A stretch of 64,000 bases of DNA from positions 288,001 through 352,000 of the forward strand of contig CAVYSE010000003.1 of assembly GCA_963771075.1 (NCBI GenBank), read 5' to 3'. The notes under the pieces were generated by a model. The model had not been told where the DNA came from, did not search any database, and saw nothing but the letters and a program-made list of their open reading frames with translations. Below, piece by piece: positions 52,741 through 62,508 of the stretch (its first letter is position 1; the number at the start of each line of letters is the position of its first letter). The translations under genes and the position numbers were made by a program. Source of the stretch: a candidate division FCPU426 bacterium. Lineage in GTDB: Bacteria > Oederibacteriota > Muellerivitia > Muellerivitales > Muellerivitaceae.

Positions 52741-53202
52741 TTGGAAAAAAAGATTTATTATCGAACGGGATGGTTTCTCCTATCCGGGGCGGGTTTCTTT
52801 GTGTTTTTGTACCGCATATTTTTTTCAAGTGAAAAACTTATTTTTATGGATTATTTAGTTACTTTATTTGGTGGATTTATTTTTTCTTTTTCCCTATTTC
52901 ACGCTTTCTATCCAATATTGACCTATGACGAAAACGGGTGTGAAACAAATGTCTTTTTGCGAAGAAGAAAACACTACAAATGGATAGATGTTAAGGTGAT
53001 TTTCCGTGTCTCCTCGGACATAACCTGGATGAATGACAAGAGTGATAAAGGACCGATGTTAGGCGGAAAAATGTTTACGAGACATTACCAAGAACACATT
53101 ACAAGCATTGTTGAATTTGTCCAACGATGTAATCCAAATGCCAAAATCGATCCCTATATTCTTAAAACTATTGAGGAACGAAAGCACAAAAGCAAAGATT
53201 GA
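52741..53202 (+). CDS. AT-rich hypothetical protein, 2 N-terminal TM + soluble domain; immunity-like orphan
   Basis: 153 aa, TTG start, ILTYDENG...YKWIDV. Confidence 0.65.
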   Translation: MEKKIYYRTGWFLLSGAGFFVFLYRIFFSSEKLIFMDYLVTLFGGFIFSFSLFHAFYPILTYDENGCETNVFLRRRKHYKWIDVKVIFRVSSDITWMNDKSDKGPMLGGKMFTRHYQEHITSIVEFVQRCNPNAKIDPYILKTIEERKHKSKD

Positions 53203-53268
53203 TTAATTTATGGGGATGAAATTCATTTTTTGACAGTTTAAGAAAGAAAGGGGTTCGGAAAAAACGAA

Positions 53269-53970
53269 ATGATTTTTAAAAGTTTTAAAACATATTTTAA
53301 ACCCCTTGTACTAGTTATGGCTCTTCAGCCATTTCCCTCGATGGTCCTTTTGGCCGCCACCGCCGATGAATGGCCCATGTTCAAAAATGACTTGGGGCAT
53401 ACGTCCGTTAATGCTTCCGACAGCCTCCAAGCCCCCTTCTCCCTTCTGTGGAGCAGTTCCTCCGTCATCGGCGCCACCAATTCCGTGGCTTATTCCTCGC
53501 CCGTCATGTGGAACGGCAAAACCTATATCGGCGGTGTGGATGGTACTCTTTACGCTTTCGCTGGGGCGGTCACTACCTCGGCCAACCCGCCTCTTTGGAG
53601 CTTTAAAACCACGGGCCTGATTTACGGGTCGGCGGCGGTCACCAGCCTGGTTTCAGGGGGGGTAACAAATGATTATGTCTATGTGGGCGCTACCGACGGA
53701 AATTTGTACTGTTTGGATTCTATGACATCGCCAGGGAATACCTTCGTATGGACTGCCCCGCTAGGGGGGGCTATCTTTACTTCTCCCCTCATCGTTCCCG
53801 AAGCCTCGGGCACTTTGGTGATCTGCGCTTCCCATTCAGGCATTTTGAATGCCTATAACGCCCTGACCGGTGCTGCGGCCTGGACCGCCCCGGCCACGAT
53901 AACCACCAACTTCCTTTTTTCATCCCCGGCTTATGACGCCACTAATGACCAGGTTCTTGAGCCTTCCTAG
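53269..53970 (+). pseudogene. Secreted PQQ-like beta-propeller protein, truncated at the transposase inverted repeat
   Basis: Signal peptide, DEWPMF, SSPV..GKTYIGG.DG.LYA, VYVGATDGNLYCLD repeats; stop lies inside the IR. Confidence 0.75.
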
Positions 53971-54989
53971 AAACATTGGGTCAGGTCTTCATTTTATATT
54001 ACCTATCCGGACCTTGAACCGCGTCTCTCCCTCCATCCGCTTCTTTACCATCGCTATCCGGTTCCCCACTGCCGAATATTTTACACCAAATTTTTCCGCG
54101 ATCTCTTTCAGGCCCAGGTGCGCTCTTTTTCGAAGTAGGTACATACCAACGTCCCTCGCCTCGTTGGCCTTGTGGAACTTAGTCGTGATTTCCTTTTCCT
54201 CAACCTTATATGCTTTCGAGACCTTTTGGATAACATCTTCCGCCGTACGTTTCTCGATCCGATGGTGTTTCATCGGTATTTCCGGGTCTTTCTTATCCAA
54301 CAACCCCTTTAATTTCTCCTTTAGACCCTCACCCCCGTAATAAACCCCACCCTCCATCTTTTCCCATGGCGATTCCTTTTTTCGCAACCCTTCCAATACG
54401 AACTTCCGATAGGCTCTTTGGGCTTGCTTGGATTGCCTGCCAAATTGCCCCAATACCCAATCCACCTCAAACCAAGGTTCTTTCTTCTCGATCCCGGCCG
54501 TCGCCCGATAGCTGCTCCACTTCCATTTCCGGGGATGTTTCACCAACCGCGCTCTTACCGGGTTCAAGACCACATATCGGCACAACTCCAACAAATGGGT
54601 TCCCTTTTCCACGTGGATCGCCTTATAACGGCCTTGAAAGAGATGCCCTACCCGGTTATTCCGTCGATTGAATTTCTGGGTATAAACACCATTCAGGTGC
54701 CGTATGGCCCGTGACAAGTTGGCTTCCGGCGTCTCCACCAACAAGTGGTAATGATTATCCATCAATACCCAGGCATGGCACATCACATGATGATCCTCCA
54801 CGACTTGGGCCAATACCCACAAAAACAATTCCCGGTCCTTATCCGACCGGACAATGTTTTTCCGCTCGTTCCCCCGCGAGGTAACGTGATAAACAGCGCC
54901 TTCATAATGCACTCTAAACGGTCTAGCCATTTGCGGATCTTATCATAAAGATAATATAAAATGAAGACCTGACCCCATTGTTCTTGGAA
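53964..54989. mobile_element. RAYT-like element bounded by inverted repeats
   Basis: Perfect 24-bp IR GGGTCAGGTCTTCATTTTATATTA at 53978-54001 and 54952-54975, imperfectly extending about 14 bp outward. Confidence 0.75.
53989..54930 (-). CDS. REP-associated tyrosine (Y1/HUH) transposase with C-terminal HTH
   Basis: MARP.R...GAVYHVTSRGN, MDNHYHLL (HUH), GHLFQGRY, YVVLNPVRA, WSSY; DnaA-C-like HTH tail. Confidence 0.93.
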   Translation of the reverse strand: MARPFRVHYEGAVYHVTSRGNERKNIVRSDKDRELFLWVLAQVVEDHHVMCHAWVLMDNHYHLLVETPEANLSRAIRHLNGVYTQKFNRRNNRVGHLFQGRYKAIHVEKGTHLLELCRYVVLNPVRARLVKHPRKWKWSSYRATAGIEKKEPWFEVDWVLGQFGRQSKQAQRAYRKFVLEGLRKKESPWEKMEGGVYYGGEGLKEKLKGLLDKKDPEIPMKHHRIEKRTAEDVIQKVSKAYKVEEKEITTKFHKANEARDVGMYLLRKRAHLGLKEIAEKFGVKYSAVGNRIAMVKKRMEGETRFKVRIGNIK

Positions 54990-55806
54990 TGGTCTTGTTC
55001 TTTAGTAAAGCCTTAATAAGTGAAAATGTTTTAGTGTTAGTGAATGTCTTCGCACGGCTCATTTCACGGATGTAGGCGAGGGCTACAGCCCCATATTGCT
55101 GACTAGACCCTCCGTGTTCCGTGTATCTCTTTGTGCCGTATTTTTCCAACACTTCTTTGAGGATTTGTATTTTTTCTTCTAATGAGAGAGGACAGGCCTT
55201 GAATTTCACAAGCAAGGCCTCCGGATGGGACAAGCCATATTCTCCAAACTTGGTCACTTGATATTCCGAATTTAGAAATTCTTTCAAGATTTCATCCGAA
55301 ACTTCACACAACTTTTCCTTTTGTTGTGTATCGCGGTAAAGTTCTAACAAATATAGGTAAGCTTCTTCCTTGACCGGAACCGGTTTGGAACCAACAATCA
55401 AGCCTTTCACGCAATCATCCGGAAGTAGAATGATTTTATTCAGGTAGCGTTCCTTCTTTTTCAGTTCGCTTCCTTCTGCTATCTCGAAATAGATCGAGGG
55501 TTTCATTGCCTGGCCTGGGATCATAAAGGGTTCCAGCCAGGGGCGCCTTTTGTATGTCTCTGAAACAGATTCCATAAATTTGTTACTCGGGAATTTTGGA
55601 TTCTTGAATTTATTTAATATTTCGAGAAAGTTCTTTTCGGAACCTGCTTTCACATATTCGACAAAAGCCCGTTCATCGGAATTCAAAGTCGTGTTCTGTG
55701 GTTGGATCAGGACAGTCGGGCTTGGAAGAGGCTGGGTTTGGGAATGAGTCAATGCCATCCCGGAAAATAATAAGATGGCCATAGAAAACAAAATATTTCT
55801 TTTCAT
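54943..55806 (-). CDS. Secreted hypothetical protein (C-terminus reads into the transposase IR)
   Basis: GAGG SD, signal peptide MKRNILFSMAILLFSGMA; ends ...TMGSGLHFILSL, which is encoded by the IR. Confidence 0.7.
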   Translation of the reverse strand: MKRNILFSMAILLFSGMALTHSQTQPLPSPTVLIQPQNTTLNSDERAFVEYVKAGSEKNFLEILNKFKNPKFPSNKFMESVSETYKRRPWLEPFMIPGQAMKPSIYFEIAEGSELKKKERYLNKIILLPDDCVKGLIVGSKPVPVKEEAYLYLLELYRDTQQKEKLCEVSDEILKEFLNSEYQVTKFGEYGLSHPEALLVKFKACPLSLEEKIQILKEVLEKYGTKRYTEHGGSSQQYGAVALAYIREMSRAKTFTNTKTFSLIKALLKNKTIPRTMGSGLHFILSL

Positions 55807-55904
55807 AAATTTACAACCTCGCAATATCTCTTCAATAAATTGTTTCGACCGAGCAATTGTTGACTTACAAGGCCGTTATTTCACCTCTTTGAAGTTAAAG
55901 GGGT

Positions 55905-55932
55905 CTTACACGACGAGTCCCCGTCGTGGACA
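55905..55932 (-). repeat. Cassette-boundary site A (11-6-11)
   Basis: TGTCCACGACG GGGACT CGTCGTGTAAG, 35 nt after the hepT stop. Confidence 0.8.
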
Positions 55933-55967
55933 GGTTGTTTTGACCAATTAAATCTGAATCCTCGTGC

Positions 55968-56306
55968 TTAAACCTCAGCTAGGTATTTTTCTAAGACTGG
56001 GATTAGTGGGGGAAATTCACGGAAGACAACGCCCAAAACAACACCGTAATCCACGCTCAAATAATCGTGAACAATTTTATGGCGCGTTCCGATGATTTTT
56101 TCCCATGGAATATTGGGGTGGGCAGATTGATAGGCGGGGCTGACATGTCGGGCGGCCTCCCCGAAAGTTTGAACGTAATGAGCCAGAACGATACAAAAGT
56201 CCTCGTCCGATTCGCAGTTTTCTTGTTTTTTACCTTGGATTTTCAGAACGGCTTTTTTGGCCGTATCCAACATGTGACCGATGTAAACCCGGTCATCCCT
56301 CTGCAT
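55968..56306 (-). CDS. hepT: HepT-like (DUF86/HEPN) toxin
   Basis: IPW..I.G.RHKIVHDY (RX4HXY motif). Confidence 0.9.
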   Translation of the reverse strand: MQRDDRVYIGHMLDTAKKAVLKIQGKKQENCESDEDFCIVLAHYVQTFGEAARHVSPAYQSAHPNIPWEKIIGTRHKIVHDYLSVDYGVVLGVVFREFPPLIPVLEKYLAEV

Positions 56307-56592
56307 ATTGGACTTCCGCCGAATTCAGGACTCGTTCCCGCAAGCGTGGATTTAGGTACTTTTCCGTTATCAAATCCACTTCACGCCCAAACAAGCCCGA
56401 CAATTCCTTTTCGATATCGATAACCTCGAAACCAACAATCTGACCCGGTTGGTATTGAACCAGAACGTCCACATCGCTGTCGGGGCTGAAGTCATCCCGC
56501 AAGACCGATCCAAAAAGGGATAGCTTTTGGATGTGGTGTCTTCGGCATATTTCAGCGATTTTTTCTTTATCTATTCGAATTGTAGTTTTCAT
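56293..56592 (-). CDS. mntA: Minimal nucleotidyltransferase antitoxin
   Basis: LFGSVLRDDFSPDSDVD (GSX10DXD); overlaps hepT. Confidence 0.92.
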   Translation of the reverse strand: MKTTIRIDKEKIAEICRRHHIQKLSLFGSVLRDDFSPDSDVDVLVQYQPGQIVGFEVIDIEKELSGLFGREVDLITEKYLNPRLRERVLNSAEVQYAEG

Positions 56593-56725
56593 TTCAATGG
56601 CCTCTTGGGCTGCTCCTCAATGATTAAAGGCATTTTATGCCTGATCCATTAGGGCAACAAGTGCCTGGCAGTTAGTAGCCCTTTGCGATATAACCAGCCC
56701 AGAAGGGGTTGGTTTCCCTTTCAAT

Positions 56726-56896
56726 TTAGGTGTCCACTTTCACATATTCGGCAAATGCCAGTTCATCGGGATTTAATGTTGTGTTCTTTGGTTGAACCAT
56801 GACAGTCGGGCTTGGTAGTGGCTGGGTTTGGGGATGAGTCAATACCATCCCGGAAAATAATAAGATGGCCATAGAAAACATAATGTTTCTTTTCAT
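56726..56896 (-). pseudogene. Truncated diverged allele of the 54943-55806 gene
   Basis: MKRNIMFSMAILLFSGMVLTHPQTQPLPSPT...EYVK|VDT*; SD changed from GAGG to GATG. Confidence 0.8.
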
Positions 56897-56995
56897 AAAT
56901 TTACAACATCGCAATATCTCTTCAATAAATTGCTTCGACCCTAGCAATTGTTGACTCACAAGGCCGTTATTTCACCTCTTTGAAGTTAAAAAGGT

Positions 56996-57023
56996 CGTCT
57001 ACGACGGGTCCCCATCGTGGACA
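56996..57023 (-). repeat. Cassette-boundary site B (11-6-11)
   Basis: TGTCCACGATG GGGACC CGTCGTAGACG, 50 nt after the hflX stop. Confidence 0.85.
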
Positions 57024-57073
57024 ATTTCTTATCGACCGAGCTTGCGAACTCGTCCGGCACACACCGTGGGGCA

Positions 57074-58390
57074 CTACTTCATCATTTTACTCAAGCGTTG
57101 AAGGTCAATCGGACGCGAGCGAACAAGAAGCAGGACGCCTTCTTCGGTAAAGCTTTCCTTCAAAATTTTCATATTCAAACGCAATTCTTTGAAGGCGCCT
57201 TGGGCTTTATAGGGAACGAGAATCTCCTTTTCCATCATGTCTTTCTCGAAAAAATGAATAATACGTTCACTCACGATCTGCATGTCCTCAGGGCTGCGGG
57301 TCGAGGTTAAAACCGCGTCCGGATACTCCGCCCCGAGAACCTTCTTCTGCCATTCGCTCAAGCAGTCGGCTTTATTGAGGAGAAGAAGATAGGGCGTTTT
57401 GTCGGCGCCAATCTCACCTAAGACTTCCCGAACCACCGCGAGCTGGGAACGAAAGTTGCGGTCAGCGGCATCCACCACGTAAAGAAGCAGGGCCGCGCCG
57501 CGGGCCTCCTCCAGCGTGGCGCGGAAGGACGCCACCAGATCGTGTGGAAGCTTGTGGATAAAACCCACTGTATCGGTGATCAGGATTCTCGGCTGGGTCT
57601 CGGGTTGCAGGGCGTGGATCGTCGTATCCAGGGTCGCGAAGAGCTTGTCCTCCACCAGGACGTCGCTGCCGGTCAGCGCCCGCATGAGGGATGATTTTCC
57701 GGCATTCGTGTAGCCCACGAGCGCGGCGCCGAGCAGTTCCGCGCGTTTCATCCGGCGTTGCTCCTCTTCCCTTTGAACCGCTTCTAACTCGCGCCTCAAC
57801 TCCGCCAGGCGGTCGCGGACTTTGCGCTTTTCCGTCTCGATGATGGTTTCCCCGGATCCTCGTCCAGACTGGCGTTCCTTCCCTACCCCCGTATCCCTGA
57901 GACGGGGAGCCTGATAGGTTTGGCGCGCGATATCGACCTGGAGCCGCGCGGCCCGGGTCTTCGCGTGTCGGTTGAAAATATCGATAATCACCCCGGTCCG
58001 ATCGAACACCGGAACCCCCAAAGCCTCTTCGACGTTGCGAATCTGGGACGGGCTCAAATCGCAGTCAAAAGCCACCATCTCCGGTCCTTCGGGAGCCGGG
58101 GCTGTAGCTGGCGGCTGTTGTGGCGCGACCGAGTTCCCCTGGACCCTGTCCCGGTAGCCCTTTCCGCCGGTGAGGTGGGCGAGCTCCCTCAGTTTTCCCT
58201 CACCGATCACAGTGACCCCCGATGTGGTGGGTTTCCGCTGGGACATCGTGCCGACCACCTCGTATCCCAGGGTCGTCACCAGCCGCTCGAGCTCGATCAA
58301 CGATTCCGTCGCTTCGTTATCAGTCACCTTGGGCGTTCTGACCGAAAACAGGAGTGCTTTCGGATGCGTGTTTGTCAGCGGGGATTCCAT
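57074..58390 (-). CDS. hflX: Ribosome-splitting GTPase HflX
   Basis: DRTGVIIDIF..HA.T..ARLQV, G1 VGYTNAGKS, LFATLD, DTVG, NKAD. Confidence 0.96.
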   Translation of the reverse strand: MESPLTNTHPKALLFSVRTPKVTDNEATESLIELERLVTTLGYEVVGTMSQRKPTTSGVTVIGEGKLRELAHLTGGKGYRDRVQGNSVAPQQPPATAPAPEGPEMVAFDCDLSPSQIRNVEEALGVPVFDRTGVIIDIFNRHAKTRAARLQVDIARQTYQAPRLRDTGVGKERQSGRGSGETIIETEKRKVRDRLAELRRELEAVQREEEQRRMKRAELLGAALVGYTNAGKSSLMRALTGSDVLVEDKLFATLDTTIHALQPETQPRILITDTVGFIHKLPHDLVASFRATLEEARGAALLLYVVDAADRNFRSQLAVVREVLGEIGADKTPYLLLLNKADCLSEWQKKVLGAEYPDAVLTSTRSPEDMQIVSERIIHFFEKDMMEKEILVPYKAQGAFKELRLNMKILKESFTEEGVLLLVRSRPIDLQRLSKMMK

Positions 58391-58501
58391 TTACAGCCTC
58401 GATTGAATTCTATTAACTTTTTTATCTATTCGGTTTACATCCGCAAAGGGGTTAGGTTACCCGCACCGCAGCGGGTAACCGTGACCCGAATCCATTTTCC
58501 T

Positions 58502-58529
58502 TGTCCAATCCAGGTCCCCATCGTGGACA
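58502..58529 (-). repeat. Cassette-boundary site C (11-6-11)
   Basis: TGTCCACGATG GGGACC TGGATTGGACA, 8 nt after the vapC stop. Confidence 0.85.
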
Positions 58530-58537
58530 AAAACCAA

Positions 58538-58927
58538 TCAAAAGAATTGGTGCTGAAGGCCCTTTATCTTTTTGAAATGTTGGTCCTTGGTCCAAAGGGT
58601 TTGATGGTTGGAAGTGGCCAAAGTGGCAATAAGAATGTCGCTCAGTGGAAGCGTAATACCGTGTTTGCGCAAATCGTAGGAAATTCTGCCGGATTCAAAA
58701 TGAACTTCCGCGCTCGCCTCCAGGAAATACAAACCTTTTAGGTTCTCTTCCAGGAATGAAAACTCCTCCAGATCAGCGGCTCCCTGCAAGACCTCGAAAA
58801 CGACGATTCCGCAAGTAGATATGGAACCCCGTTTTAAATGTTTGACGATTTTTTCCCCGGTTTCACTGCCTGGTTTCCGGAAATAATCGATCCAAACGGA
58901 CGTATCGATAAGGATCTCAGCGGGCAT
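58538..58927 (-). CDS. vapC: PIN-domain toxin
   Basis: ILIDTSVWID, E.LQG, SDILIA, TKDQHF acidic PIN residues. Confidence 0.92.
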   Translation of the reverse strand: MPAEILIDTSVWIDYFRKPGSETGEKIVKHLKRGSISTCGIVVFEVLQGAADLEEFSFLEENLKGLYFLEASAEVHFESGRISYDLRKHGITLPLSDILIATLATSNHQTLWTKDQHFKKIKGLQHQFF

Positions 58928-59123
58928 GGAGTTCTAGCTTCCGCAATTCGGTTGAAACGTCTTTCACCCTCAAACGTCCCCTCGCGGAAATAAGGTTATC
59001 CAATCTTCTCCGCCGAACGAAATCTTCGATAGCTGTCTCGATGGCCTGGGTTTTTGAGGCCCATTTTTCCATGGACATGAGTTCTTTGATCAGGTGGTTT
59101 GAAAGTTCGAGGGTCGTTCGCAT
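58917..59123 (-). CDS. vapB: VapB-type (RHH) antitoxin
   Basis: MRTTLEL..L..E.M...SKT.AI..A; overlaps vapC; AAGGAG SD. Confidence 0.88.
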   Translation of the reverse strand: MRTTLELSNHLIKELMSMEKWASKTQAIETAIEDFVRRRRLDNLISARGRLRVKDVSTELRKLELHAR

Positions 59124-59133
59124 GGCAGGCTCC

Positions 59134-59188
59134 TTAATGCATAATATTTGTATGCATTAATCATATGCATCTGGTAGACAGGGGTCAA
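59134..59188 (-). promoter_or_regulatory. vapBC sigma70 promoter with palindromic operator
   Basis: TTGACC-17 nt-TATGAT; perfect IR TTAATGCATA-N7-TATGCATTAA at 59134-59160. Confidence 0.75.
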
Positions 59189-59197
59189 GGTTCACTT

Positions 59198-59262
59198 TGT
59201 TTACGAAGGGTCCCTGTCATGTAGCATGCGCTTGCGCTTAGCTACATGGCCCATCGTGGACA
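59198..59262 (-). repeat. Cassette-boundary site D, interrupted by a 37-nt hairpin insertion
   Basis: TGTCCACGATG [37 nt] GGGACC CTTCGTAAACA, 5 nt after the stop of the 59268 gene. Confidence 0.8.
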
Positions 59263-59267
59263 AACCC

Positions 59268-59702
59268 CTACCCGTTTACCGTTGGAAATGCCTTCCCATT
59301 GCCTGCCAGGGTCTTCACTTTGAGGGTATCTTTTTTGGGCATTCGCAGAAAAACGCCAGGACATTTTTTGAAGCTGATCAAGACCCTCGGATAAAACAAA
59401 CTTTGGTATTCTTCGACGATCAGGTCTTCCCAGGGTATGAAAAGGGGCTCATGGCCCAGCCTCAACCAAGGTGTCACTTTCATGGAAAAGCCTGAGTAAT
59501 TCCCTCCCAGAAGAAGGCTAAAGCCATAATTGGCGATTCCCATACCACCCGAGCAAACAATCTCCTCACCCACATAGTGCGTCACATCGGGATAAACCTT
59601 CGCCAGTTTCGACCATCCCCCAGCACGAGAAGCGATGACGCCCGCGCTGGGCAGAGTGATGAGAAAAACGAGAAGGAGGATGGGGATAAAAAATGGGGGC
59701 AT
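59268..59702 (-). CDS. Hypothetical protein with N-terminal TM
   Basis: 144 aa; GGWSKLAKVYP, GHEPLFIPWEDL. Confidence 0.75.
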   Translation of the reverse strand: MPPFFIPILLLVFLITLPSAGVIASRAGGWSKLAKVYPDVTHYVGEEIVCSGGMGIANYGFSLLLGGNYSGFSMKVTPWLRLGHEPLFIPWEDLIVEEYQSLFYPRVLISFKKCPGVFLRMPKKDTLKVKTLAGNGKAFPTVNG

Positions 59703-59721
59703 GTATAAATTCCGCGATTCT

Positions 59722-59958
59722 TTATACTTTTTTGAGTAGCTCTAGATAATGCTCCGGGGTCATTTCTGTTTCTCTTAGAATTTCACGAATCAAAGGGCGG
59801 GCAATATCCTGGTTCCCATGATTCGGCAGGGTGGTTGTCTTTCCATCGGAAGCCCTGCGATAAAAAACGTGGCTTCCCTTCTGTCGAACCGGTTCAAACC
59901 CCGCCAATTTCAACAACTTATCCATTGTCCGGAAAGGAACAACGGGCAATCGGCTCAA
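59722..59958 (-). CDS. hicA: HicA family mRNA interferase toxin
   Basis: GFEPVRQKGSHVFY, TTLPNHG..DI. Confidence 0.92.
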   Translation of the reverse strand: MSRLPVVPFRTMDKLLKLAGFEPVRQKGSHVFYRRASDGKTTTLPNHGNQDIARPLIREILRETEMTPEHYLELLKKV

Positions 59959-60173
59959 ACGCCGACCTCAATTTGTTGAAGTCCAACAAAGTGTGGCAAA
60001 TCGGCGTCGCTACCCTCGTTTTCTTCCAGGCACAATTCCAAGACTTCCTTCAAATTCTTTTGAAGCTCATCAAGGGATTTTCCCTGGCTGTGGGCCCCTG
60101 ACATACCCGGCACTATTCCCACGTATTGTTTTGTTTCCTGGTCGAATTCCACATAAGCCGTAAATGTTTTCAT
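59955..60173 (-). CDS. hicB: HicB family antitoxin (short form)
   Basis: YVGIVPGMSGAHSQGKSLDEL..NLKEVLEL; GAGGTG SD; overlaps hicA. Confidence 0.9.
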   Translation of the reverse strand: MKTFTAYVEFDQETKQYVGIVPGMSGAHSQGKSLDELQKNLKEVLELCLEENEGSDADLPHFVGLQQIEVGV

Positions 60174-60275
60174 CTCGTCACCTCAAGAACAGGATACCAT
60201 CCCATCTGTTTTACATAAACCCATGTTGAATCTCGACTTTGGCAAATCTTGAAAGACGCTCCGTGAACATCAATT

Positions 60276-60455
60276 TCCCCCTTCCCCCATGCCCCATTGG
60301 AAAGAATGACATGGGGCATGGGGAGGTCCCCATTTTCATTTTTTAATATTTAACGGTGAAATGGGGGTGAAAAAGGGGGGTAGGGGGTATTAGTCTTTGG
60401 CAAAGCGATAAGAAAAGGCTATCTCCCCCTTATTCCCCCTCTTTCAGAGGGGGAG
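60276..60455. repeat. C-rich/G-rich REP-like palindromes
   Basis: CCCCATGCCCCAT...ATGGGGCATGGGG; CCCCCTCTTTCAGAGGGGG, also present at ~50311-50330. Confidence 0.6.
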
Positions 60456-60515
60456 ACTTAGTGTGTCTAGACTGAATTTGCCAAAGTTGAGCTGGATAAT
60501 GGTTTTTCCTAATTT

Positions 60516-60809
60516 TCATTTAAACAAATCGTTCCATTTGCTTTCCATGTCGTTTTTGGGGCCCGCAGGACCGGATTTGCCCTTGCCCCGTTCCGAAAAC
60601 TGGAACTCGTCGCAGAAGTTACGTTTTTCCTTCTGCTTGACCGGCTCGCTGGTTCGGCTCAGGCATTGGTTATAGGACCCGGCGTCGTAGTGGCGGCAGT
60701 TAAGGCAACAGTGGAGATCGGCCCCGCAAGAGGTGCAAGTTTCATCCCTCCCCGGCTGGGTGCCCGGAAGGGCCTCATATTCGGCTTGGCATGAATGGCA
60801 GTTTTTCAT
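60516..60809 (-). CDS. Cys-rich (Zn-binding) hypothetical protein
   Basis: CxxC, CTSCGADLHCCLNCRHY, C...NFCDEF; GGAGG SD. Confidence 0.8.
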   Translation of the reverse strand: MKNCHSCQAEYEALPGTQPGRDETCTSCGADLHCCLNCRHYDAGSYNQCLSRTSEPVKQKEKRNFCDEFQFSERGKGKSGPAGPKNDMESKWNDLFK

Positions 60810-60833
60810 GGGCTACCTCCAAAAGACATTCAA

Positions 60834-61007
60834 ACCGCGAAGACGCGAAGGAAATCATAAAATCCCAATTTTGTTGAACAAGATTCCAAATACGAAAATA
60901 AAATTCACGTAATAAAGCACCCCTCACCCTGTCCCTCTCCCTCAAGGGGCGAGGGTATTGGGTGCCCCAAGACTAAACTATGTTTTCCTTCGCGTCTTCG
61001 CGGTTAA
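60834..61007. repeat. Nested REP-like repeats
   Basis: ACCGCGAAGACGCGAAGGAA ... TTCCTTCGCGTCTTCGCGGT enclosing CCCCTCACCCTGTCCCTCTCCCTCAAGGGGCGAGGG. Confidence 0.7.
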
Positions 61008-61020
61008 ATCGAAATTAAGT

Positions 61021-62508
61021 TTACCTGCTGAGAACCTTCCCGATGGCCCATTTCCAGCCGGTCCAAAGCTTTTTTCGCTCTTCTTCCCTCATCTTTGGCG
61101 CGAATATCCTATCCACTTTACGTAGGCGTTGGATTTGCGAGGCGTTTTTCCAAAACCCCGTTTGTAACCCCGCCAGGAAGGCGGCTCCCAGCGCGGTGGT
61201 CTCTACCACCTGGGGTCGGTTGATCTTGATATTAAGGAGATCAGCCTGGAACTGCATGAGCAGGTTGTTCTTGCATGCCCCGCCATCCACCCGCAGTTCC
61301 CTCAACCTCACGTGGGAATCCTTGAGCATGGCCTCGACCAGATCCCGGCTTTGGAACGCCAGGGATTCCAGCGTGGCCCGGACTACATGCGCCCTGTTCG
61401 TTCCCCGGGTAATCCCAAGAAGGGCGCCCCTGGCTTTGGAATCCCAATAGGGGGCTCCCAGCCCCACAAAGGCCGGTACCAGGTAAACCCCTCCCGTATC
61501 CTTGACCGAAGCCGCGACTTTTTCCGACTCAGGTGAAGTTTTAATGAGTTGTAATCCGTCCCTGATCCACTGGATGGCGGCCCCACCGATGAAGACCGAG
61601 CCTTCCAGGGCATAGACCGGCAACCCCTTGGCGTCGCAGGCCAGGGTGGTTAAAAGCTTGTTCTTGGAGATCAATCTTTTCTTGCCAACGTTAAGGAGGA
61701 GAAAACAGCCGGTGCCATAGGTGTTCTTCAGGGTTCCAGGGTCGTGGCAGCCTTGGCCGAATAATGCGGCCTGCTGGTCCCCCGCAATGCCTGTGATGGG
61801 AACCCCCGCGCCCAGGTAACTTTTGCGGGAAGACTCCCCGAAATGGCTGGCGGAAGGCTGGGCCTGGGGGAGCAGGCTTTGGGGAACGTTCAGGATCTTC
61901 AGCAGGTCCTTGTCCCACTTCTTCGTGAAGATATTGAACAAAAGCGTGCGGGAGGCGTTGGAATAATCGGTGGCGTGGGATTTTCCCCCGGTTAGGTTCC
62001 AAAGAAGCCAAGTATCGATGGTGCCGAAAGCTAGGCGGCCCTGTTTGGCCTTTTGGAGGGCTCCCGGTACGTTCTTCAAGAGCCATTCCACCTTGGTGCC
62101 CGAGAAATAGGCGTCCAGGACCAGGCCCGTTTTGGAACGGAAAACTTTTTCCAATCCCCTCTTTTTAAGTTCCTCACAACGGGAGGCGGTGCGGCGGCAT
62201 TGCCAGACGATGGCGCGGTGGATGGGTTTGCCGGACTTGCGGTCCCAAACCACGGTGGTTTCCCGCTGGTTGGTGATGCCGATGGCGGCTATGTCTTTCG
62301 GTTTCACCCCGGCGCTTTTGAGCGCCTTCTTGCCCGTCGTTTCCACCGAATCCCAGATTTCCAGGGCGTCATGCTCCACCCAGCCGGGTTTGGGAAAATG
62401 CTGGGTGAATTCCTGGTAGGCGCTCCCCACCACCTTTCCCGTTTGGTCGAAAAGATAGGTGCGGCTCCCGGTGGTGCCTTGGTCGATGGCGAGGATCAAT
62501 TTGCCCAT
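61021..62508 (-). CDS. glpK: Glycerol kinase
   Basis: [56 protein letters not shown]. Confidence 0.98.

Follow-up and report, generated by a model that had tools for sequence, protein, structure and literature searches.

What has arranged a row of unrelated genes, all read in one direction and parted by short, near-identical palindromes, is the question raised by a 64,000-nucleotide stretch of DNA (hereafter the window) from a candidate division FCPU426 bacterium. The window corresponds to G000:C3:288001-352000, where G000 is the source genome (4.39 Mb, 96.7% complete). An earlier interpretation from the letters alone (the sequence-only reading) had placed four 28-bp sites, A to D, on the minus strand, and all four occur there with the coordinates and sequences it gave, D being split by a 37-bp insert. 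It further proposed a gene-capture and shuffling system using a lineage-specific recombinase encoded elsewhere. The sites are interpreted here, at a probability of about three in four, as points of crossover in a gene-cassette system that a minimal serine recombinase would operate. The cassette system itself is real and family-wide, and is probably driven by a serine recombinase.

A genome-wide scan with a position weight matrix (PWM), as suggested in the sequence-only reading, yielded 107 matches above 14 bits across G000 and none in two block-shuffled genomes. The 98 sites above 18 bits form 28 clusters across the genome, with 70 adjacent pairs at most 6 kb apart where 12 would be expected (maximum of 24 in 1,000 random draws). 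Sixty-six of these 70 pairs share orientation, and the matches thus cluster in co-oriented arrays. This set excludes the duplicated end of contig C26 (G000:C26:141000-144686), which repeats the preceding array in inverted form with many errors and is probably an assembly artefact, and contig C26 beyond 141 kb was also omitted from the flank and cassette comparisons. An 18-base core of the motif is found in 28 of 30 genomes of the same family and in the one sister-family genome, and in none of 67 other genomes of the phylum, from outside the order. Viral contigs contain no exact match to the motif. Eighty array regions from 12 relatives, picked by site coordinates, together with G000 supplied 545 sites, and a set of 703 distinct sites, with metagenome loci included (at least 149 loci), was chosen on the arms alone.

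Across the 13 genomes, 410 of 431 adjacent site pairs are co-oriented. The 410 units which they enclose have a median length of 850 bp, the longest open reading frame (ORF) follows the orientation of the sites in 381 of them, and the stop codon lies a median of 18 bp before the next site. Among 72 homologous pairs of whole cassettes, homology ends at the sites, and the neighbouring cassettes differ in 82 of 84 comparisons, the two agreeing cases belonging to a single duplicated block in G027. Cassettes of different genera are in several instances 99-100% identical, and these end precisely at the sites. A looser flank comparison (238 shared downstream, 120 upstream and two on both sides) owes part of its counts to intron and recombinase clusters and is not relied on. 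As judged from these alignments, units between co-oriented sites move whole, both between arrays and between genera. Order varies with breakpoints at the sites, and the pattern is not one of singly scattered motif copies or fixed synteny, which supports the proposal of gene capture and shuffling. The cargo was scanned in 100 cassette ORFs (the first 100 of a random 145, drawn from 370 in the relatives), among which 19 match families of toxin-antitoxin proteins, four GNAT, three immunity-type families and one Shedu, with 45 giving nothing at E ≤ 1e-5. Individual cassettes match the aminoglycoside adenylyltransferase family (L080:1113-1442) and a stand-alone Shedu nuclease domain (L136:2826-3347).

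The geometry of the site bears on the class of enzyme. The sequence-only reading parsed it as two 11-bp arms around a 6-bp spacer, the layout of Xer sites, a possible parse but the less fitting one. Among the 703 sites, inner positions 12 and 13 pair with 16 and 17 in 0.95 and 0.89 of cases, and positions 11-13 as a whole complement 18-16 in 0.89-0.95, as against 0.007 for positions 14 and 15. Because only the central GA is asymmetric, the site is better described as 13-GA-13. Where the downstream flank is shared (26 clusters), positions 1-11 vary 23 times, 12-17 never and 18-28 13 times. Where the upstream flank is shared (31 clusters, intron-flanked sites excluded), positions 1-13 vary 13 times, 14-15 twice and 16-28 76 times. 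This split indicates that the left arm follows the end of the upstream cassette and the right arm the start of the next one, and on these alignments exchange takes place between position 11 and approximately 16-18 of the 28-bp site. The symmetry of the site points to the finer location of the cut, which may lie at the central GA (positions 14-15). One 100%-identical cassette is joined to a right arm differing at positions 16-17, which are other than CC in 79 of the 703 sites and read GG in 16, a state which a 6-bp overlap should disfavour. The left arm is by far the more constant of the two (12.4 versus 10.9 of 13 positions). The 37-bp hairpin insert of site D recurs just before the GA in 13 G000 sites, D included, in the same place and orientation and with all flanks different, and is no simple target duplication. 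A diverged, reversed form of it occurs in L073. At 13 places in G000, a 1.98-kb group II intron-like element with a reverse transcriptase ORF begins immediately beyond a site's outer end, next to either arm (contigs C2, C3, C4, C5, C6, C9, C21 and C26, e.g. C5:82591-84570). Related introns adjoin sites in the relatives, and a second intron type enters the site centre in L109.

A candidate for the enzyme is physically linked to the sites. The only intact serine recombinase of G000, also its only gene with a Resolvase domain, encodes 277 amino acids (aa; G000:C8:80002-80835, catalytic serine S20), and only 14 bp separate its stop codon from a site that lies on the opposite strand. All four matches to the Recombinase domain in this genome abut sites, three of them being 5'-truncated copies at other loci. 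Intact short genes abut a site in five of five cases (at 8-36 bp, one such site having a degenerate left arm) and remnants of the short gene in nine of nine (relatives and G000), while the full-length relatives do so at none of 12 loci. The remnants always retain the 3' end and the site and their 5' breaks vary. The arm which adjoins the short gene is variable, with no distinct conserved attI. At L069:8284-8450 (G002), a 3' remnant of approximately 110 bp lies cassette-like between two sites. A protein search restricted to lengths of 152-485 aa recovered 19 clusters with lengths of 275-283 aa and identities of 68-96%, followed by a gap to at most 61%, among the best 120 of 3232 matches. The short form constitutes one clade of 20 rows (support 100/99), which the tree places closest to tRNA-inserted integrases of full length from the same order (93/76, not starred). 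All 20 proteins of the clade stop just before the zinc ribbon, and thus possess neither this domain nor the coiled coil. The short recombinase retains the catalytic motifs and comprises a catalytic serine domain and a recombinase domain. The ratio of non-synonymous to synonymous substitution (dN/dS) is 0.08-0.16 in the seven pairs, out of ten, for which dS is finite. Serine integrase structures are the best matches to its predicted model (predicted local distance difference test score, pLDDT, of 75.8). No relative of it was found in viral contigs, and a plasmid search gave no match at E ≤ 1e-40. The full-length serine integrases of the order at L045, L046 and L058 end inside or antisense to the 3' ends of tRNA-Gln or tRNA-Ser genes. 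The tRNA att of these full-length relatives was also considered as a source of the site and rejected, there being no likeness near their 3' ends and the best scores being negative.

We infer a mechanism in which a dimer of the 275-283-aa enzyme, with its catalytic and recombinase domains, would bind the two 13-bp arms and cut around the central GA. This asymmetric GA would hold all cassettes in one orientation, and the fixing of orientation by an asymmetric central dinucleotide is established serine-recombinase chemistry. Any two co-oriented sites could then excise a circular intermediate, and any site could receive one. The enzyme gene is found where an array ends downstream, in tail-to-tail arrangement and in many cases within a region resembling a conjugative element, and arrays devoid of it, including that of the window, would be orphan arrays, served in trans or only upon the arrival of an enzyme-bearing element. 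The sites would have no attP, attB, attL or attR identity because the zinc ribbon and coiled coil have been lost. In the available text on the LI integrase, the recombinase domain has a contact area of 13 bp, whereas the motif for the zinc domain, which binds positions 16-24, lies further out (PMC3783163), while the enzyme deprived of its coiled coil is promiscuous, its attachment sites becoming functionally alike (PMC5499577). For an enzyme that is naturally devoid of both, 13+2+13 bases should suffice and no site should be distinguished from another, in agreement with the observed pattern.

Several observations weigh against this mechanism. The genomes compared are kin, and hence non-independent samples. 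An intact short gene is present in only five of 31 family genomes, versus 29 of 31 for the motif, and in the incomplete assemblies of the site-rich genomes G002, G003, G008, G021 and G025 only remnants or nothing was found. Position 14 differs within one 100%-identical upstream pair, and position 15 within one pair. The GA is missing from 46 of the 703 sites, ten of which carry the inverted centre TC, and a lone-arm crossover test (26 left and ten right arms) was too noisy. Contigs of four read runs contain no joint of excision or of a circle, and as none of them spans the stretch this result is neutral either way. According to the available text of PMC5499577, the LI integrase lacking its coiled coil is also inefficient at intermolecular integration.

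The explanation which survives best beside cassette shuffling shares its enzyme and chemistry and differs in purpose alone. Here the short recombinase would mainly serve a conjugative or mobilisable element as its integrase, allowing it to enter any resident site, with shuffling as a side effect and the arrays as island remnants, much as in the staphylococcal cassette chromosome (SCC). Genes for ArdC and RadC/JAB proteins lie beside the intact short gene in G000, G027 and G020, with neighbours shared with G024, and a TraG/VirB4-like ATPase is encoded 13.5 kb from it in G000, suggesting that the short recombinase probably travels on conjugative elements. The short gene of G027 lies within a 7-kb unit bounded by two co-oriented sites, and the affinity with the tRNA-inserted integrases of the same order points in the same direction. 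The gene in G004, however, has no ArdC/RadC-type neighbours, and the units are mostly single genes or toxin-antitoxin pairs in the orientation of the sites with stop codons near the next site, as in purpose-built cassettes. A role chiefly as element integrase is unlikely. Whichever of these two purposes it serves, it is very likely that one and the same serine enzyme recombines the sites.

Recombination of the sites as single-stranded hairpins by another enzyme, in the manner of IntI and attC, or the spread of repetitive extragenic palindrome (REP)-like repeats by the HUH transposase, to which the sequence-only reading had also turned as a possible processor, is considered very unlikely. The sites can fold, 13 of them carry the extra central hairpin, and group II introns insert right beside them. 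Many right arms, however, pair poorly, site C folding at -2.7 kcal/mol, and the complementarity between a cassette's own two arms hardly exceeds that of shuffled pairs (10.71 against 10.67, the observed value being reached in 72 of 2,000 shuffles). No IntI exceeds the cut-off in G000 (TIGR02249, best 41.8 versus 265 bits), and exchange is central rather than at one end. The two attC cores (RYYYAAC/GTTRRRY) occur together in none of the 107 G000 sites, in line with the sequence-only reading, which saw no attC core; the sites are neither attC nor dif. Only four of the 20 Y1 genes have a site within 3 kb, the remaining 16 being further away or on site-free contigs. The Y1 element of the window breaks a cassette, and its copies elsewhere are 98-99% identical, some at 26-197 kb from any site. 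The spread of REP-like repeats would furthermore not yield whole cassettes with swapped neighbours.

The Xer-type tyrosine recombinase favoured by the sequence-only reading fares no better. The single Xer of the host has an A+T-rich palindrome of its own directly before its start codon (G000:C6:114166-114195, in L003 just before 1099), which has an 11-6-11, dif-like layout, is conserved in the relatives, is single-copy in G000 and is unlike the cassette motif. By analogy with XerS and its linked difSL site (PMC2731167, available text), this palindrome may be the host dif. A conserved A+T-rich motif of approximately 30 bp is also found in inverted orientation, approximately 150-200 bp to either side of xer (L003, L009-L023). 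The range of the Xer clade resembles that of the motif (29 of 30 family genomes, the one sister-family genome and none of 67 others at E ≤ 1e-40), which counts against the serine recombinase, although such a range is expected of any core gene of the order. That the sites are pdif-like and recombined by this Xer is highly improbable: an 11-6-11 parse is possible and a core gene would account for arrays in genomes without the serine enzyme, but the motif is found at none of 17 Xer loci, positions 16-17 depart from CC as described above, the cassette sites are direct repeats where pdif modules are described as having inversely oriented sites, and the fixed link of the serine gene to a site is left unaccounted for. 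The other seven tyrosine recombinases of G000 were rejected as candidates, as they lie at least 30 kb from a site or on site-free contigs. Three are encoded by adjacent genes at G000:C5:132.2-135.0 kb, none near a site, which we take to be a recombinase-in-trio (RIT)-like arrangement. Four are phage-type integrases of approximately 370 aa (C3:383 kb, C7:97 and 108 kb, C27:55 kb), again none near a site.

Within the window, the order along the minus strand is glpK, a 97-aa gene, hicBA, a 144-aa gene, site D, vapBC, site C, hflX and site B, followed by the stub of a secreted-protein gene, a 7-bp site remnant, mntA-hepT, site A, another allele of the secreted-protein gene and a Y1 element. Site D (59198..59262), the first of the array, consists of a 13-bp left arm (59250-59262), the insert (59213-59249), the GA and a 13-bp right arm (59198-59210). 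Sites C (58502..58529), B (56996..57023) and A (55905..55932) have the plain 13-GA-13 form and score 39.0, 41.0 and 31.7 bits, respectively, and every other unsplit site in the window scores at most 4 bits. They follow stop codons at 35 (A), 50 (B), 8 (C) and 5 nt (D), within the 5-50 nt noted earlier. Pfam matches to HepT, MNT, HflX, PIN, VapB, HicA and HicB support the gene content given in the sequence-only reading. The division into modules has to be amended in two respects: hicBA with the 144-aa gene is no cassette, and the module between B and A comprises two fused cassettes.

The vapBC cassette (58530..59197, minus strand; vapB 58917-59123, vapC 58538-58927; Pfam VapB and PIN) has homologous cassettes in G003, G008 and G020. 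Its putative promoter (59188-59160) matches a sigma-70-like consensus at ten of 12 positions, such promoter-like matches being no commoner in the region than in shuffles. The hflX cassette (57024..58501, minus strand; gene 57074-58390; Pfam HflX domains) has site-bounded homologues, 89-94% identical, in G002, G004, G024 and G027, with different neighbours where compared. After site B comes a 5' stub of the secreted-protein cassette (56738..56995, minus strand), a second allele left by deletion and 91% identical to 55647-55850, and then the final seven bases of the right arm of a fifth site, E (56731..56737, minus strand). The sequence following remnant E is a typical cassette start, matching those at G000:C3:175159 and in L073, and leads into the mntA-hepT toxin-antitoxin cassette (55933..56730, minus strand; 56293-56592 and 55968-56306; Pfam MNT and HepT). 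A site-bounded homologue of the latter, 85% identical, is found in G020 (L111), its sites being 823 bp apart compared with 826 bp between remnant E and site A. On this sequence evidence the B-A module is two cassettes joined by a deletion which left a remnant of a fifth site. The last cassette (54943..55904, minus strand) contains a secreted-protein ORF of 293 aa (54943-55824) with no match in a Pfam scan. The two secreted-gene alleles (repeat families D1 and D2) share homology from the site inward, as the sequence-only reading had it. One read-derived contig joins site A to sequence of the other allele. In G002 (L073) the homologous ORF is intact, longer and enclosed by two sites, indicating that the Y1 (HUH) transposase element (53959..54994, minus strand, with 46-bp inverted ends) cut the last cassette of the window, which lost its 3' end and closing site. 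This element is an intruder outside the cassette machinery. Each true module of the window has a site-bounded homologue in other genomes.

On the opposite side, hicBA and the 144-aa gene (59268..60173, minus strand) form the flank. The 144-aa gene belongs to the chromosomal backbone and is syntenic with glpK in two genomes of the same genus, G002 and G003, in both of which it has no site after it, and the PWM scan of the window found no site upstream of hicB. At the orthologous glpK locus of G003 the array of the window is absent, with no site within 19.5 kb, while in G002 a different array stands approximately 7.5 kb further on. The hicBA genes are absent from this locus in both genomes, and a non-coding repeat with more than 20 genome copies lies upstream of them at 60232-60500. 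Rfam gave no matches in window positions 53000-61500.

The system is integron-like in its working, yet it is neither an integron, nor a pdif, nor an SCC system as these are defined. The Ccr enzymes of SCC are full-length proteins with a zinc ribbon, while the enzyme here has lost both the zinc ribbon and the coiled coil. In the available accounts, the CcrAB serine recombinases excise tandem att-flanked cassettes, including those without an enzyme, with defence-type cargo, but SCC elements are large (24 kb) and located downstream of rlmH, as opposed to units of approximately 0.85 kb in 28 clusters (PMC11470126). With integrons and attC-site clusters that have no integron integrase (CALINs), the arrays share rows of co-oriented, mostly single-gene cassettes of changing order, a recombinase gene that flanks some arrays at one end and is missing from many, a cargo in which toxin-antitoxin, GNAT and unknown genes abound, and sites targeted by introns (PMC4889954, available text). 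They differ in having no IntI and no attC cores, in the single short symmetric site with central exchange, and in a linked enzyme that is a serine recombinase, its gene standing tail-to-tail where the array ends downstream, with no distinct conserved attI. The large serine integrases LI and A118 likewise combine catalytic and recombinase domains with a 2-bp asymmetric centre and a 13-bp inner contact, as far as the available text goes (PMC3783163, PMC5499577), whereas here the zinc ribbon and coiled coil have been lost naturally and one site type, in approximately 100 copies, replaces the attP/attB pair. In Acinetobacter, 28-bp pdif/dif sites also flank accessory modules, chromosomal ones included, and a title cited in the same paper describes modules flanked by inversely oriented sites (PMC12907356, available text); the site here is G+C-rich, forms direct repeats and is unlike the organism's own dif-like site. 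A literature search, in which most subscription papers and supplements were not covered, returned no description of such a system. It is fairly likely that the arrays represent an independent invention of the integron, in which loss of the zinc ribbon and coiled coil turned a tRNA-targeting large serine integrase into a direction-free shuffler working on a single 28-bp site. The enzyme would thereby supply a pool of single-gene cassettes which spans the order and whose members pass from genus to genus.

Arrays of single-gene cassettes are known mainly from tyrosine-recombinase systems, namely integrons and pdif. Scanners for attC and dif would miss plain 28-bp duplex sites of a serine-based version, and such arrays may consequently be under-counted. 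How integron cassettes are made is unknown according to the available text of PMC4889954, and a serine-based system would offer a simpler model for cassette making. The short recombinase would also provide a natural test of the structural model in which the zinc ribbon and coiled coil confer directionality on serine integrases, and is a candidate compact, reversible recombinase. The many cassette genes of unknown function in this family may, as in integrons, include new defence functions.

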